Under the pieces are notes generated by a model that was given only the letters and a program-made list of their open reading frames with translations, did not search any database and was not told the origin of the DNA. From positions 1 to 64,000 of IMG/VR virus record IMGVR_UViG_3300042505_001173: a DNA stretch of 64,000 nucleotides. One strand, 5' to 3'. Below are positions 55,444 through 64,000 of this stretch, piece by piece. Every line of letters starts with the position of its first letter. Within the stretch, counting starts at the first letter, position 1. The position numbers and the translations under genes were made by a program. This DNA is from a virus.

Positions 55444-58400
55444 TTAAGGGAATGCTTGACCGCTACATACACCATAAATTTTTGTACCATCTCCAAAAAA
55501 TGAGAAGATGTCAGTTGTACCAGCAAGTGATGTCGGTACAGGAACAATATTACTTTCCCAACTAATAGTACCACTCCAAGTAATCGTATGTGCACCTGAA
55601 TATTTCACAACAACTGATACACTTTTACCGGTAAATGCGCTAGCAGCAGGTAATGTGATAGTAACATTAGCCGTAGTTGATAATATTTGCATAGATCCTT
55701 GAGTTGGATCTAACGCCCATGTAGTTGAATTGGTATTGTATATATTTTCAACAATTCCACCTGGTATTACAACAGAATTATCACTCTGTACAATTAAAGC
55801 TGGTATAGGATCTTTAGCTCCATTTTTTGTAGAACTAATTACCAATCTACTACCGTGCGCTGTTACAGACCAATCTTCAGTACTGTAAGCTTCAATTAAT
55901 GTACTTACATATTCAGTAGCTCCATCCCACCCACCTAATTTAACAGATCCTAATAATGTACCAGTTGGGTTGGTTGGTTTAGTAGCTGCTGGAGTGACAG
56001 GCGAAGGACTTGAAAATAATTGAACACTTGCACCTGATGTCGCTGACGCTGTTGGGTTATACACTGTTAACGCAGCTGTAGTATTTGTTGTTACCGCTTC
56101 CAATACAACTTTTTCAGTTTTTAATGTGGAACTAGTTTTATCATATGTAAATTTAGTATCTTCAGATAATGTTCCACCTGATGAAATAATAACTGATTTA
56201 TCCGCAAATGTTGAAACCGTTGTAGGACCAACAGCTTTATCATCTACATATTTTTTTGTTACTAACGCTGCATCTTTTCCATTTAAATCTGTTAATGTGA
56301 AACCGGTAGCATACTCTAAAACTTGTTTAGGTTTAGATGTTGATGTATTATCAAATACAGTTCCTAATTGTAAGTAATTAGAATCAGCGTATTTTTTAGT
56401 AGTGTAATAATAATCAAAATCAGCAGCTGGTACACCTACTGCGCCAATATTATTGTTCAAGTCTGAACTATACGCACTACCTAATGTTTTTAAATTAGCT
56501 GAAATACGATATTCATTATGTGGAGTATCATATGTTACATTTCGTAACGATACAGCTGTACCAGTTAATAACAAAGGTTCAACAACTGTAAATCCAACAG
56601 GGGTACCACCCGTTGATCCAATTGAAGCGTAGTGCGTATCAGCAAAATGTTTAGTTACGAAATAATTATCGTAATCAGCTGGAACTTTACCAACCTCTTT
56701 ATTGATATTATTATCATTATCGGAACTTAAAATATGTTTTTTAGTTTGAATGTTTACATCAAAATCATATCTATCATTAGCGTTATCTAATGTAATGTGA
56801 GGTAACGTTAACACACCACTTGAATCTACATTGAAAGGTGCACTAACTTTAACACCTCCTAATACAGTAGGTGACGATACAGGTAACGTGTACGAACTAG
56901 AAGATTTGACATAATTAGCATCAGCGAAATGTTTAGTTATGAAATATTTGTCATAATCAGTTACAGCTTTTAATGGATCGCTAAAGATTTTATTATCAAT
57001 ATGATCACTGTACGAAAACTCACCAGATTTGATAGCTGCAGCAAATACATATTCAGCTGGGGCTGCTAATACAGGAGGTGTGGCCGTCGGGTTAGCAGTG
57101 ACAGGTGCAGTATATGTAATTTGAGGTAACGATAACACGCCTGTGTTACTCATATCAAATGGCGTACCCACTTTAATGCCACCTAACGTGGTATTGTTAG
57201 CTGCTAGTAATGCGTATGGGTTAGTACCACCTGCACCTCCCCCACCTATAGCTGCATAATGAGTGTCTGCAAATTTCTTGGTTATAAAATACTTGTCGTA
57301 ATTTTTAGATACGTCTAAACCGATAGTGTTGTTATCGTCGTCACTGTAAATCCACTTCAGTGATTTAATAGCTGCATCGACTGTATATTCAGCTGGAGCT
57401 GCTAATACAGGAGGTGTGGCCGTCGGGTTAGCAGTTACCTCACTAGTGAATGCAAATTTTTGCAATTGCAATACACCTGTAGCATCAACAGCAAACGGTT
57501 TCGCAATCATTATTCCACCGACAACCGTAGCGGTAGCTATTGAAGTAGATGAACCACCAGGTACACCTGGTGTACCAATTGCCGAGTAACGCGCATCTGC
57601 GTAATTTTTAGTGATGAAATAACCATCGTAAAAATTTGCTGGTTTAGTTGTATCAGCATCGACAGTATTGTGTACATCGGTACTATATAAAGCGTTACCT
57701 GATTTAATAGCAGCTGTAAAATTATATTCTGATTTAGCTGAATCGTAAGCAACCTTAGCTAAAGATAAAACACCTGTCGCTGAAATTGTTAATGGGTCAC
57801 CAACTTTAACACCGCCCATGGTACCAACTGAAGCTGTAGGTAAAACGTATGTACCTCCCCCACCGGAGCCCCCACTTAATTTCACGAATTTACTTTCTGC
57901 GTAATGTTTCGTAATATAATATGAATCGTAATATGTAGATGGTTTTGAGTTATCTGCATCCACCAAACCGTCTTGTTCAGAACTATACAATGATTTCTGG
58001 GTCAATAAGTTCGCATTTATTGTATATTCAACTTTAGATGAGTTGTATGTTTGCCCAGCTAATGATAATTCACCGGTTGTAGCATTTGTTGTAAACGGAG
58101 CACCAACTTTAATACCACCTAATACAGTACTTGTTGCGATAGCTAATGGTCCACTACTACCACCCGCACCTAACGACGCGTAATGATCATCTGCATATTT
58201 TTTTGTAACGAAATAGTTATCGTAATCAGTGATTGGTCTTGTGATATCTACACCAATATTATTATCAACAGTAGAGCTATATGCTTCACCGGTAACTTTT
58301 AGGTTTGTAGAAAAATCATATTGGGCAGGAATTGATGGATCCGTAGCAGTAGCAGGTACAAAAATTCTATACTCTACATCTTCCAATGATATATCACCTA

Positions 58401-59430
58401 ACCCGTTTACAATGAATGGACGTTGTGGTCTAAAGCCGCCTAATACTAAACTTGTTGCAACAGGTAATGGACCTCCACTACCGGTTATCGTCGACCATCC
58501 AATAGTACCATTACCATCAGTGCAGGTTAACACTTGGTTGATAGCACCTTTGCTCCAACTTGCAGAGGTTCCATCGTATGCCAATATACCTTTAGTAGGT
58601 GTTGCTGTTGGTACCCAGCTAGGTGAAGATCTATTGGTTTCCCAACTCAACGAACCAGCTGAATCAGTACAGGTTAATACTTGGTTAGCAGAACTGCTTT
58701 TACTCCATACGGTATTGGTTCCATCATATGCAAATACACCTTTAGTTGGTGAACTTGTTGGGAACCATACCGGTAGTGAACTACCACCGCTACCTCCGCT
58801 ACCTAACCCAGCATAATGTTCATCGGCGTATTTTTTAGTAATGAAATATTTGTTAAATGTAGTTGCTGGAACACTAGGTGTTGGAGCAATATAGTTATAA
58901 TCATCGTAGCTATAGATATCGCCAGACATCATTAAATTGGCATCAATGGTGTACCTTGCTGATGACGGTGGTGTCACAGCTGCAGGCGCATAAGTGACAC
59001 CCTTCATGGTTAATGCACCTGATGATGGAACCATAAATGCGCCACCGGTTTTAATGACGCCAGCGGTTGAATCAGTTGCTAACGAAAGTGTAGGTGTGCT
59101 TCCACTACCGCCTGAACCTACCGCTGTCCAAACGTTACCGGTTGATGAAGGTGTAAAAACTTTTAATAATCTGGTGCCTGTATCAAACCACAATTGACCT
59201 ACTGTTGGGTTAGTAGGTGGTACGTTTCTACTGAAATTTTCTAACAGTCTTACTAAATTTGTTTGAAGGTCCTCACCGTACGTTATACTATATTTGCCGA
59301 ATAGAGATAAAGAAGTGGAGGTTTTATTTGTGGATCTTTCACTAATTGCGAAAGGAGGCTTATAAAAATACCCTGCAGTGGTAGAGTCATCACTCGAACT
59401 AAATTTTATAATATAATCGTTTATTGCCAT
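55444..59430 (-). CDS. Long repeat fibre protein, copy A
   Basis: Start MAINDYIIKFSS (59430) matches paralog MALTDYTIKFSS; eight ~100-aa units; same C-domain as 47218; ATAAATA at 59463-59469. Confidence 0.8.
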   Translation of the reverse strand: MAINDYIIKFSSSDDSTTAGYFYKPPFAISERSTNKTSTSLSLFGKYSITYGEDLQTNLVRLLENFSRNVPPTNPTVGQLWFDTGTRLLKVFTPSSTGNVWTAVGSGGSGSTPTLSLATDSTAGVIKTGGAFMVPSSGALTMKGVTYAPAAVTPPSSARYTIDANLMMSGDIYSYDDYNYIAPTPSVPATTFNKYFITKKYADEHYAGLGSGGSGGSSLPVWFPTSSPTKGVFAYDGTNTVWSKSSSANQVLTCTDSAGSLSWETNRSSPSWVPTATPTKGILAYDGTSASWSKGAINQVLTCTDGNGTIGWSTITGSGGPLPVATSLVLGGFRPQRPFIVNGLGDISLEDVEYRIFVPATATDPSIPAQYDFSTNLKVTGEAYSSTVDNNIGVDITRPITDYDNYFVTKKYADDHYASLGAGGSSGPLAIATSTVLGGIKVGAPFTTNATTGELSLAGQTYNSSKVEYTINANLLTQKSLYSSEQDGLVDADNSKPSTYYDSYYITKHYAESKFVKLSGGSGGGGTYVLPTASVGTMGGVKVGDPLTISATGVLSLAKVAYDSAKSEYNFTAAIKSGNALYSTDVHNTVDADTTKPANFYDGYFITKNYADARYSAIGTPGVPGGSSTSIATATVVGGIMIAKPFAVDATGVLQLQKFAFTSEVTANPTATPPVLAAPAEYTVDAAIKSLKWIYSDDDNNTIGLDVSKNYDKYFITKKFADTHYAAIGGGGAGGTNPYALLAANNTTLGGIKVGTPFDMSNTGVLSLPQITYTAPVTANPTATPPVLAAPAEYVFAAAIKSGEFSYSDHIDNKIFSDPLKAVTDYDKYFITKHFADANYVKSSSSYTLPVSSPTVLGGVKVSAPFNVDSSGVLTLPHITLDNANDRYDFDVNIQTKKHILSSDNDNNINKEVGKVPADYDNYFVTKHFADTHYASIGSTGGTPVGFTVVEPLLLTGTAVSLRNVTYDTPHNEYRISANLKTLGSAYSSDLNNNIGAVGVPAADFDYYYTTKKYADSNYLQLGTVFDNTSTSKPKQVLEYATGFTLTDLNGKDAALVTKKYVDDKAVGPTTVSTFADKSVIISSGGTLSEDTKFTYDKTSSTLKTEKVVLEAVTTNTTAALTVYNPTASATSGASVQLFSSPSPVTPAATKPTNPTGTLLGSVKLGGWDGATEYVSTLIEAYSTEDWSVTAHGSRLVISSTKNGAKDPIPALIVQSDNSVVIPGGIVENIYNTNSTTWALDPTQGSMQILSTTANVTITLPAASAFTGKSVSVVVKYSGAHTITWSGTISWESNIVPVPTSLAGTTDIFSFFGDGTKIYGVCSGQAFP

Positions 59431-59503
59431 AGTATTGTTCGTATATGAGGTGAATAATACAGTATTTATGATGAGATATATTATATAACAATAGCACAAA
59501 GGT

Positions 59504-59531
59504 ATACCCAAGGTGTTGATTCCTTGGGTAT
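59504..59531 (-). terminator. Intergenic hairpin
   Basis: atacccaagg / ccttgggtat. Confidence 0.7.
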
Positions 59532-60288: not shown

Positions 60289-60819
60289 CTAATTCCTTAA
60301 AAACTCATTAAAATCTAATTCGTACGTAACACTATCGATATCGTGAACACCGAGCAAATATAATATATAACTCGATACAGAACTACCTCGTCCAACTCCC
60401 CACACCACTTGTTTTTCTATAAAGTTATCAATGATATATACTAAGGTCTTCAATAGTGGTACTAACTCTAATTGGCTAAAAACTTTAAATTCAAATTGTA
60501 CACGTCTATGTCGTTCAACAAATTCAACTTCTGTTAAACTATCATCGACACCTGCTTGAACAAGTTTATCTGTTATATATTGTTTAATATCCATCGTATG
60601 ATACTTTGGTGGTATGTTCCACTCTAAATCAAAAACATCTAACTCGCGTTTAAGTTTAATTTTTTGATCAGCTAACACATTCTTATTAAATTTAACGATA
60701 TCATCAGTCATCTCAGTGACTGATAGTTTCGAATATTTAACCCACTTTAACACATCCTTTGGATGTATTTCAATAGTCCCATCATACCAAAGATCCCGGC
60801 TATTTAACACTGATTTCAT
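60289..60819 (-). CDS. DNA polymerase III alpha (DnaE)-like fragment
   Basis: WGVGRGSSVSSYILYLLGVHDIDSVTYELDFNEFL matches the DnaE GRGS...F.RF region; only 176 aa. Confidence 0.85.
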   Translation of the reverse strand: MKSVLNSRDLWYDGTIEIHPKDVLKWVKYSKLSVTEMTDDIVKFNKNVLADQKIKLKRELDVFDLEWNIPPKYHTMDIKQYITDKLVQAGVDDSLTEVEFVERHRRVQFEFKVFSQLELVPLLKTLVYIIDNFIEKQVVWGVGRGSSVSSYILYLLGVHDIDSVTYELDFNEFLRN

Positions 60820-61245: not shown

Positions 61246-61737
61246 TTAATATCCTATTAAATCGCCTACGTTTTTATGCTTTAAGAATCTAGTATACGTA
61301 TCAGAAAAAGAGCACGATACCCATTTACCGTCACCTATATCAAGACACAACATAACGCCTCGTGAATGCGTTGGATATACATGAGTGCCTTGAGGCTTCC
61401 AATCAATTACATCTATTTTCATATATTCATGAGTACCTGCGCTAGCGCCGTAGCCAAGTGCATAAAAGGTGTTATTTGACAGATGACATACCTGAACCGT
61501 ATCAATTTGGGTTGTTTCGGGGTCACACACGAGTATATACCAATAGCTGGGAAGTTCAATGTACCGATTATTGATTCTAACGGTGAGAGTATTACATTTA
61601 CACTCTTCGACTACTTTAAACATGTTAATAGTAAAATCTTGCGATTTTAAGTCTAAGCACCACAAATAATTCGTATGTACTTTATCGTGTATACTATTGA
61701 TCGCTAATGGGTTACCGTTTTCTTCATGGAATATCAT
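61246..61737 (-). CDS. Hypothetical protein downstream of the helicase
   Basis: 163 aa, AAGGTG RBS. Confidence 0.7.
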   Translation of the reverse strand: MIFHEENGNPLAINSIHDKVHTNYLWCLDLKSQDFTINMFKVVEECKCNTLTVRINNRYIELPSYWYILVCDPETTQIDTVQVCHLSNNTFYALGYGASAGTHEYMKIDVIDWKPQGTHVYPTHSRGVMLCLDIGDGKWVSCSFSDTYTRFLKHKNVGDLIGY

Positions 61738-61769
61738 TTAACACCTTTAAAAACATTATTAGTAAATTT

Positions 61770-62675
61770 TTAACTATCGTCAACTATATCTTTATCATAA
61801 TTAACTTTAATTACTTTGTACGGGTATCGCGCATTTTTATAATGTGTTACACGTTTTTTCATCCTTGCATTTGCTGAATTAAAATTGCTACAAATATCTA
61901 GTACATTAACAGAATCTTTATCTTTGCCCTTTCTTAAACCTCTACCAATAGATTGTATAGTACCTACGAAAGATTTACCACTGTCTATGAAAAATAAAGC
62001 AAAAATTCTATCAATTGATAGACCGACTCCTGCAATTTGTTTAGTACATATAACAATCAAATCATTATTATGTTCAAATAAATCATACACTTCATCACGT
62101 TCCTTAACTTTATCACTACCGTGAAGGAAGTATGAATTAGGTATCAATTTTTGTAGTGTTCTACCGTACTTGATATTATTAACAAGAACTAACGTATTCC
62201 CGTGATGGTGTTTATCTCTATTAGCAACGATAAAATTAGCTATCCAGTTAGTACGAGTTTCATTTGTTTTGCAAAATTCTGTTTCTTCTTCGTACATTAT
62301 CTTATGGACGTCCTCTTCAGGAACACCATGATCGATTAAATAACGTGTATCGTTTAACTGTAAAATGTTAATATTCAGTTGAGCTAACCATCCCTTTTCA
62401 ATCAACTCATACGCAGGGTACTCACATAAAACTTTACCTAATGCGACGTGAACGTTTAACTTATCTGCAGCTGGTTCAGGTAATGTACCTGTTAGTCCGT
62501 ACCGGTGAACGAGATTTTTACCGTGCTCCGTTAACAATTGATATAATTTTGCTGCTTTACTACCATGACAATTACTAACAACTGCGCCATTAGCTACATA
62601 ATTGTGATTTTTTGAGACTTTTAAATTATAGACGATATTTGGTTTTTCAATTTCGGTACGTTTGACTAGTTTCAT
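61770..62675 (-). CDS. uvsW: UvsW-like SF2 helicase, C-terminal half, fused to split-intein IntC
   Basis: 35-aa IntC, then CHG, GLTGT (motif III), GVGLSI (V), QSIGRGLR (VI). Confidence 0.9.
   Translation of the reverse strand: MKLVKRTEIEKPNIVYNLKVSKNHNYVANGAVVSNCHGSKAAKLYQLLTEHGKNLVHRYGLTGTLPEPAADKLNVHVALGKVLCEYPAYELIEKGWLAQLNINILQLNDTRYLIDHGVPEEDVHKIMYEEETEFCKTNETRTNWIANFIVANRDKHHHGNTLVLVNNIKYGRTLQKLIPNSYFLHGSDKVKERDEVYDLFEHNNDLIVICTKQIAGVGLSIDRIFALFFIDSGKSFVGTIQSIGRGLRKGKDKDSVNVLDICSNFNSANARMKKRVTHYKNARYPYKVIKVNYDKDIVDDS
62571..62675 (-). mobile_element. Split intein C-fragment (35 aa)
   Basis: MKLVKRTEIEKPNIVYNLKVSKNHNYVANGAVVSN / C+1: blocks F and G. Confidence 0.92.
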
Positions 62676-62923
62676 GCGTATTTTTTAAATTTATTAGATA
62701 CTTTTGGTGATATTGTTTTTTCGCCGTTTATAGTAGATATTACATCTCCGTCACGGATAATATGTTTTTCACCGGATGTGTCAAATATATAAGGTACTAA
62801 CATTACTTTGGTACAACAATGAGGTTTATCTATATTTTTGTATTGTCTTAAATTACTAACTACCATAAACCCATCTTCCATACCCAATTCATATGTTTTA
62901 ATACTAATAATTGACCGTGACAT
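62672..62923 (-). CDS. 83-aa intervening gene, weakly PGDYG-like
   Basis: YELGMEDGF...VPYI...HII.DGDVI; GAGGT RBS overlaps the IntN stop; its TGA overlaps the IntC ATG. Confidence 0.65.
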   Translation of the reverse strand: MSRSIISIKTYELGMEDGFMVVSNLRQYKNIDKPHCCTKVMLVPYIFDTSGEKHIIRDGDVISTINGEKTISPKVSNKFKKYA

Positions 62924-62933
62924 TTAACTTACC

Positions 62934-64000
62934 TCAAAAATTAATTATTTCATGATCATCCGTGAGTTTATCCGCCCTAACATACCCATCAGTTGTTAAA
63001 AACAAATGATTACCCGTTACTTCAATTTTTACACCCGTATCAAACTCCAACTTATACATTTTTTCAGCGTTAGATTTAAGTAAGTTTTCATAAACGTTTT
63101 CTACAACATCTTCTTCGAAGATCTGACTAGCTTCGTTATATGATAATACATTTTCACCAATTTTAATATCTTTTAATATTTTTTTTGTCCCATCAACTAA
63201 TGTTATATTAGTCTCACCCGATAAACATTCATCAACTACCACCATTTGAAATTGATTTATGAGGAGTGGATAGTTTTGTAATGTTTGCCACGTTGTTACG
63301 ATATGATCATAATCAATGCTTGGGTTACCTGCATGGAAATGTGAAACATCTAATTGTAACGCTGTAAATTGCTTAATTGTTTGAGTTATTAACGATGTAG
63401 CTGGTACGATCGTTAACGTTTTACATCCTTGCTGTTTATATTTATCAACAAGAACGGCGTTCAAAATGGTGTTGTGTGTGATAATACACCCATCAGTTAC
63501 ATATAAATGATCAACATCATCAATGTATATGCATTTAGTACGCTCTTTACCCCAGTACTCTATTGATTTAACTCGTCTGTTTATTTTTTGGGTATGGTTT
63601 TGTATAGTGTGATGGTATTTGATATAATTTAACTTTTTTTCATGTGACGTGAAAAATATATCATGTATTCTGTGGGACATTGTCAATGAATGAGTTCTAC
63701 GATCCTCAGATAATTTATACCAGTTACTTAAAACACCTCCTTGCATAATTACCATTTCTGATACTTGTTCAACAAGCTTAGCGTTTTGTACAATATGAAC
63801 AGTAGTGCTACCTGAAGCTGATAGTGATCCAGTCACGTCACACATACCTTGTAAAAACGATAATCTATCTTTAGCAGCGCCGAACACATATTCTTTAGGT
63901 ATGCGGTAATCGTTGCGCATATTTTGCTCTAAAAAACTGACTAGTTTCTCACTCTGTTCAGTGGTCGGTGTTAAATACGCTCTTACCTTTAACCCGTGAG
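62934..64000 (-). CDS. uvsW: UvsW-like helicase, N-terminal half with intein and IntN (start outside window)
   Basis: Frame open to the window edge; extein TILNAVL...IVPATSLITQT...TTWQTL...VVVDE. Confidence 0.9.
   Translation of the reverse strand, partial: HGLKVRAYLTPTTEQSEKLVSFLEQNMRNDYRIPKEYVFGAAKDRLSFLQGMCDVTGSLSASGSTTVHIVQNAKLVEQVSEMVIMQGGVLSNWYKLSEDRRTHSLTMSHRIHDIFFTSHEKKLNYIKYHHTIQNHTQKINRRVKSIEYWGKERTKCIYIDDVDHLYVTDGCIITHNTILNAVLVDKYKQQGCKTLTIVPATSLITQTIKQFTALQLDVSHFHAGNPSIDYDHIVTTWQTLQNYPLLINQFQMVVVDECLSGETNITLVDGTKKILKDIKIGENVLSYNEASQIFEEDVVENVYENLLKSNAEKMYKLEFDTGVKIEVTGNHLFLTTDGYVRADKLTDDHEIINF
62937..63227 (-). mobile_element. Split intein N-fragment (97 aa)
   Basis: Block A CLSGETNI...DG, IKIGENVLSYN, block B VTGNHLFLT..G, then stop. 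Confidence 0.92.
63471..64000 (-). mobile_element. Intein with LAGLIDADG-like domain (C-terminal part)
   Basis: RIPKEY...RLSFLQGMCDVTG; ends CIYIDDVDHLYVTDGCIITHN / T+1. Confidence 0.88.

Follow-up and report, generated by a model that had tools for sequence, protein, structure and literature searches.

A probable naturally split class 1 intein in a fractured uvsW-like helicase gene of a large phage

Results

Three adjacent genes at the helicase locus

We analyzed a 64,000-nucleotide stretch of DNA (positions 1–64000, hereafter the window) of the virus record IMGVR_UViG_3300042505_001173, a 147.6-kb IMG/VR contig whose completeness is estimated at 54% by CheckV. The locus of interest lies within 61770..64000 of the window, where three genes run in one direction on the minus strand. 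Gene 1 encodes the N-terminal half of a predicted UvsW-like superfamily 2 (SF2) helicase, gene 2 encodes the C-terminal half, and a small open reading frame of 83 amino acids (ORF83) separates them. The end of gene 1 and the beginning of gene 2 have the features of the N-terminal part (IntN) and the C-terminal part (IntC) of a split intein. The coordinates of all these elements are presented in Table 1.

Table 1. Features of the helicase locus and neighboring genes (window positions unless stated otherwise)
Feature	Position	Strand	Length (aa)	Remarks
Gene 1, helicase N half	62934..64955 in the record (the window cuts it at 64000)	minus	673	residues 1–148, extein ending AGTGFGK; 149–495, intein-1; 496–576, extein ending VVVDE; 577–673, IntN
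Intein-1	63471..64511 in the record (63471..64000 in the window); 2472–3512 in L004	minus	347	
Middle extein	63228..63470	minus	81	TILNAV...VVVDE; spans Walker A Thr through motif II D-E
IntN	62937..63227	minus	97	Cys1; block B TGNH; net charge -9
ORF83	62672..62923	minus	83	between the intein halves, in a frame that differs from theirs
Gene 2, helicase C half	61770..62675	minus	301	
IntC	62571..62675	minus	35	MKLVKR...NHNYVANGAVVSN; net charge +4; penultimate Ser, terminal Asn
C-extein	61770..62570	minus	266 + stop	starts with CHGSK (second half of motif II); Helicase_C domain
PolIII-alpha-like gene	60289–60819	minus	176	
Repeat protein gene	55444–59511	minus	1355	

At its 3′ end, gene 1 encodes ...QMVVVDE followed by CLSGETN...TGNH...EIINF and is closed by a TGA codon (62934..62936), base 63227 being the first base of the IntN Cys1 codon. 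IntC has its own ATG, ends in AVVSN and is directly followed by CHGSK. This is, to the residue, the arrangement described in the original prediction, which was made from the letters of the window. Its charge counts (19 D/E and 10 K/R in IntN, 2 D/E and 6 K/R in IntC) were exact on recounting, and the penultimate Ser is, as it had claimed, that of Npu DnaE. At both gene junctions, the upstream stop codon overlaps or adjoins the ribosome-binding site or the start of the gene that follows: the GAGG Shine-Dalgarno sequence of ORF83 overlaps the gene 1 stop, and the TGA of ORF83 overlaps the gene 2 ATG (ATGA). These overlaps, together with the common direction of the genes, would favor a balanced synthesis of both helicase halves.

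Identification of the intein halves and of the host helicase

Both halves scored above the cut-offs of the NCBIfam intein models. TIGR01445 (intein_Nterm) matched IntN with 31.9 bits over residues 577–654 of gene 1 (cut-off 24.5 bits), and TIGR01443 (intein_Cterm) matched IntC with 29.6 bits over residues 15–36 of gene 2 (cut-off 15.6 bits). With Pfam, Hint exceeded its cut-off for both the window fragment and the full gene 1, and Intein_splicing for the full gene 1 only. Among solved mini-inteins, IntN matched Npu DnaB (4o1r) at an E-value of 1.9e-8, and Spl DnaX, NrdJ-1 and gp41-1 at about 1e-3. IntC was aligned to blocks F and G of Spl DnaX, and its residues 2–35 aligned end to end with residues 3–36 of the 36-residue Npu DnaE IntC chain, an alignment (E = 0.4) that served for the comparison of positions only. 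As judged from these alignments, the break is at the canonical split site of inteins.

On the helicase side, the exteins are colinear with the unsplit DECH helicases P0030 and P0031 (about 51% identity), VVVDE plus CHGSK standing against VVVDECHGAK, which makes the native Cys of DECH the +1 nucleophile. UvsW_N (PF21241; 27.7 bits, cut-off 25.3) and ResIII (23.0 bits, cut-off 22.5) were found on gene 1, and Helicase_C (34.6 bits, cut-off 23.5, E = 2.5e-8) on the C-extein. The helicase also matched phrog_16, annotated as 'DNA helicase', and a RecA/UvsX-like gene lies two genes upstream. On the basis of these matches, the host protein is classified as a UvsW-like SF2 helicase. Overall, the family models, the solved-intein matches and the colinear exteins agree with the split intein initially proposed. 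The accompanying claim that the Walker B motif would exist only after trans-splicing needs a correction: the D-E pair is already complete on the N half, and splicing would restore the DE-CH of motif II and the covalent connection to the second RecA-like domain.

Conservation of the split arrangement

We found the identical three-gene layout in three further independent assemblies examined as DNA, from two Logan runs and one Joint Genome Institute (JGI) metagenome; in two more relatives a similar gene order was seen from listings, without comparison of the DNA. The arrangement was retained at 65–89% protein identity. We calculated the ratio of non-synonymous to synonymous substitution rates (dN/dS) pairwise among four loci, the source record and the three assemblies. 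The values were 0.03–0.14 for the exteins overall (0.03–0.14 for the middle extein, 0.04–0.12 for the C-extein), 0.03–0.22 for IntC and 0.07–0.50 for IntN, indicating purifying selection on both exteins and on both intein halves. Cys1 and the T, N and H of the block B TGNH were invariant in the 36 family members compared for IntN, as were N35, the +1 Cys (C36) and the +2 His (H37) in the 28 members compared for IntC.

A second intein in the Walker A loop

Gene 1 carries, in addition, a full-length intein in its P-loop (intein-1), which, like ORF83, did not figure in the original prediction. Alignment with intein-less relatives placed its insertion point between GK and T of Walker A. Intein-1 starts with Ala, contains HLW, TKC and ITHN motifs and is followed by Thr at +1, and its motifs were conserved in at least 10 relatives. 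The best solved match was 6bs8 (E = 1.4e-5), with the W, C and THN aligned; we take 6bs8 to be a class 3 intein, Msm DnaB intein 1. By its motifs, intein-1 shows the hallmarks of class 3: no nucleophile at position 1, Trp in block B, Cys in block F and Thr in block G. The lack of Cys or Ser at position 1 and the insertion in Walker A are also found in class 3 inteins of the P-loops of phage and mycobacterial helicases, but the host is here an SF2 UvsW-like helicase rather than DnaB, as in the 6bs8-type case.

Since intein-1 is in the same gene as IntN, the mature helicase would need one cis- and one trans-splicing event. Each ATP-site motif of the helicase is interrupted by an intein, and the two inteins differ in mechanistic class, one being predicted to be cis-spliced and the other trans-spliced. 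Pfam recognized neither intein-1 nor an endonuclease domain in it, and about 200 central residues were without a match to a Pfam endonuclease model. A LAGLIDADG-like LSFLQGMCDVTGS is visible in this central region.

A small conserved open reading frame between the intein halves

ORF83 occupies the slot where relatives have a gene of about 300 codons for a TnsA-like/NUMOD3 endonuclease. Its own relatives formed eight clusters of 69–83 residues with 66–100% identity; seven of them are 82–83 residues long, and the eighth (69 residues) is without the first 14 residues. Among the four loci, dN/dS was 0.10–0.26, which points to a conserved protein under purifying selection. Over the last 24 nucleotides of ORF83, 22 positions were identical in the four loci, both differences being in L005.

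We observed no match of ORF83 in Pfam, PHROG or NCBIfam, and a search for longer relatives found none. Comparison by hhalign with the endonuclease of the relatives and with IntN gave a probability of 2.8% each. The AlphaFold2 model, built from an 8-sequence alignment, had a mean predicted local distance difference test score (pLDDT) of 50, too poor for a fold search, and the ESM Atlas returned weak PDZ-like leads only (0.86, within the chance range). The tail of ORF83, NKFKKYA, resembles the endonuclease tail NKIRKLY, a weak hint that ORF83 may have grown on the 3′ end of the endonuclease gene. Between the window and L005, synonymous divergence was 0.43–0.79 in the middle extein, IntN and ORF83, compared to 1.2–1.7 in the rest of the gene; a recent co-conversion would give such a lowered divergence in these three segments.

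Rather than being debris, ORF83 might have taken the place of the endonuclease of about 300 residues as a new, very small protein that works together with the split intein. The length of 82–83 residues in seven of the eight clusters, the purifying selection, the translational coupling to both halves and the lowered synonymous divergence are hints in this direction, but we regard such a partnership as unlikely. It could then act as a minimal mobility or maintenance factor, or modulate trans-splicing or the helicase.

A sigma-70-like element, TTGACA-16-TATTAT (11/12), is present inside ORF83 at 62757–62784 on the minus strand, about 80 nucleotides upstream of the IntC gene. It was rejected as promoter evidence: the number of promoter-like matches in the region (38) did not exceed that in shuffled sequences (31.9 ± 5.8), and L086 and L087 do not conserve its -35 element. 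It was not used as evidence.

Distribution of the split intein

Database searches with gene 2 and with an N-side query returned homologues of IntN and IntC in many clusters. Among the listed gene 2 homologues shorter than 340 residues, 70 of the 74 clusters start with IntC; in those 70 it has 34–36 residues (up to 47 with a leader) and ends in (V/A)SN or AN, followed by CH. On the N side, the best 150 representatives at 50% identity included 107 N halves ending in IntN, which follows DE directly and starts with Cys, and about a dozen of these 150 have a contiguous mini-intein at the same DE/CH site. In PHROGs the two halves fall into separate families, phrog_16259 having IntN at its end and phrog_9690 having IntC at its start; the latter matches gene 2 from residue 1.

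The split intein was also matched by Salmonella phage S16, its relatives, Proteus phage PM2 and Lak megaphages. In S16, gp114 ends with ..NDE plus IntN, gp115 starts with an IntC that ends in AHN and is followed by CH, and a 291-residue ORF (gp114.1) separates the two. The S16 records name the split genes just 'DNA helicase' and 'hypothetical protein', and the intein is unannotated there and in PM2. The novelty implied at the outset therefore did not stand for the sequence itself, as the same intein occurs at the same site in more than 100 database clusters and in the cultured phages S16 and PM2. In the literature, as judged partly from titles and abstracts, we found no description of an intein in UvsW, including a split intein in the context of UvsW, DEAH or phage S16. 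The UvsW DE/CH split-intein family is large and mostly unannotated.

Spacer states in the relatives

The distance between IntN and IntC varied among the relatives. In L008, L026 and L028 it is 7–79 nucleotides without a stop, which makes a contiguous mini-intein. In L019 and L036 it is 59–70 nucleotides, with a stop and no ORF, and in L021 it is 298 nucleotides, again with no ORF. In S16, PM2, L009, L011–13, L015 and L045 it reaches 835–929 nucleotides and holds an ORF of about 300 codons, which gave sub-threshold TnsA-like and NUMOD3 matches in Pfam and clear 'endonuclease' matches in PHROG. Such a free-standing endonuclease gene lies between the halves in S16, PM2, L009 and L045 and is absent from the window locus. 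L019 and L021 retain the last ~40 nucleotides of the endonuclease gene, including the AGGA-type ribosome site before the IntC ATG, and are therefore deletion derivatives.

Overall, the relatives display every stage: the contiguous mini-intein, the split form with an endonuclease gene of about 300 codons and the split form with a remnant spacer. These states fit an invasion-then-decay model for split inteins, in which the direction of the individual steps is deduced. The most likely origin of the break is the invasion of a mini-intein by a free-standing endonuclease gene, since a gene of this kind is still found in relatives.

In the contiguous mini-inteins of L008 (4216–4644) and L026 (242–703), a single frame still includes the ..NTYS tail of IntN and the MKL/TKL with which IntC starts. 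These mini-inteins may have been ancestral to the split form or have arisen from it by re-fusion.

Neighboring genes

The PolIII-alpha-like gene of Table 1 stands alone, and its match to DNA polymerase III alpha is limited to the PHP/N-terminal region. It is found at the same position in all related contigs, with PF07733 in relatives, and a similar truncated protein of 172 residues has been reported in jumbo phage CBB (PMC5259590). The repeat protein contains many copies of a unit ending in ..YFITKKYAD.HY..; it is probably a tail fiber or another structural repeat protein, and its homologue in a relative carries FG-GAP_2.

Discussion

The locus, from a large phage, very probably represents a 'fractured' gene, in which the uvsW-like SF2 helicase is interrupted by a naturally split class 1 intein. 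According to the mechanism that we propose, the N half would be made with IntN at its C-terminus and the C half with IntC at its N-terminus, and the acidic IntN and the basic IntC would associate into the canonical class 1 Hint fold. An N-S acyl shift by Cys1 of IntN, the attack by the +1 Cys of DECH and the cyclization of the terminal Asn would then join the exteins, while the removal of intein-1 from the Walker A loop of the N half would proceed by cis-splicing. The product would be a helicase of 495 residues (148+81+266), with motif II restored as VVVDE-CHGSK. We infer the association of the halves, the splicing and the order of the evolutionary events from homology and conservation.

Several observations weigh against this interpretation. 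Position 4 of block F is Asn in most members (VYNLKV here versus VYDIEV in Spl DnaX), whereas the aligned mini-inteins have Asp, and this Asn and the penultimate Ser could slow splicing. The charge asymmetry of the two halves is a tendency of the family and is not universal, with a mean of -5.2 (-13 to +3) for IntN and +1.0 (-5 to +7) for IntC. At the start of gene 2, with its ATGA overlap, no Shine-Dalgarno sequence is visible. Finally, no second helicase copy was found in the 147.6-kb record, but with the record about 54% complete a copy elsewhere is possible.

The unusual Asn and Ser, and a splicing event deduced from the sequence, would also suit a helicase of two chains in which the intein halves act as a non-covalent dimerization module without ligation, like the intein-less 'genes in pieces'. 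This seems improbable to us, because residues that serve the chemistry only are invariant (Cys1, T..H of block B, the terminal Asn and the +1 Cys) and because an intein left inside motif II would be expected to block the ATPase cleft. We give even less credit to a decaying, insertion-inactivated helicase gene whose function is taken over by another helicase. The incompleteness of the record and an ORF83 that is not recognizable as an endonuclease would be compatible with such a decay, but both exteins and both intein halves are under strong purifying selection, the arrangement persists in diverged independent assemblies and the record holds a single copy of the helicase.

We find it hardest to believe that the split is an artefact of assembly or sequencing, or that a continuous intein is made at the RNA level through an intron, a frameshift or read-through. 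Gene 1 and gene 2 do share a reading frame. However, the 261 nucleotides from the gene 1 stop up to the gene 2 ATG contain 14 in-frame stops, the gene 1 stop included, and read-through is therefore excluded. An intron between the halves was rejected, as no Rfam family matched 61500..64000 at E-values up to 1. Moreover, the spacer encodes a conserved protein, as indicated by the dN/dS of ORF83, and the four independent assemblies agree.

The split class 1 intein proposed here can be compared with the 'fractured genes' already described, whose hosts include gp41, IMPDH, DnaE, NrdA, NrdJ, ligase and terminase, eight host enzyme types being named (Dassa et al. 2009, PMC2677866). As in those cases, a phage gene of DNA metabolism is broken in a mini-intein at the canonical point of endonuclease insertion, the two halves are neighbors in the same orientation, separated by a gene, and relatives of the locus carry a free-standing endonuclease of PD-(D/E)XK type (TnsA-like) in this place. 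In contrast, a UvsW-like SF2 helicase interrupted at motif II (DE/CH) is absent from the host enzymes named in that paper (PMC2677866), and the intervening gene is here an 83-residue ORF without an endonuclease signature. The split inteins of that set include gp41-1 to -8, NrdJ-1 and IMPDH-1, and the matches of IntN to gp41-1 and NrdJ-1 were weak (E = 5e-4 to 8e-4).

The closest systems are found in two T4-like phages of about 160 kb, S16 and PM2. They share with the window locus the insertion site (IntN Cys after ..NDE, and CH after HN) and the gene order, and their homologous halves have 47–50% (IntN) and 59% (IntC) identity to those described here. S16 differs in that its halves flank an endonuclease-like gene, its penultimate residue is His and its P-loop lacks an intein. 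The halves also resemble those of Npu and Ssp DnaE in the canonical split position, an IntC of 35–36 residues, the penultimate Ser, the +1 Cys, the acidic IntN and the basic IntC, although the sequence similarity is weak (E = 0.4–1 for IntC) and cyanobacteria encode the DnaE halves far apart from each other.

Protein ligation relies mainly on naturally split inteins, and there is a demand for fast orthogonal pairs. With more than 100 clusters at 50% identity, halves of about 97 and 35 residues and a native +1 Cys, the canonically split UvsW DE/CH family could supply many diverged and possibly orthogonal pairs. The value of the family would rise if ORF83 has a role or if fast orthogonal ligation pairs emerge from it. 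For the phage, helicase activity would depend on two splicing reactions, one for each ATP-site motif. Overall, the contiguous, endonuclease-bearing, remnant and ORF83 states together would make this family a good system for the study of the origin and persistence of split inteins.

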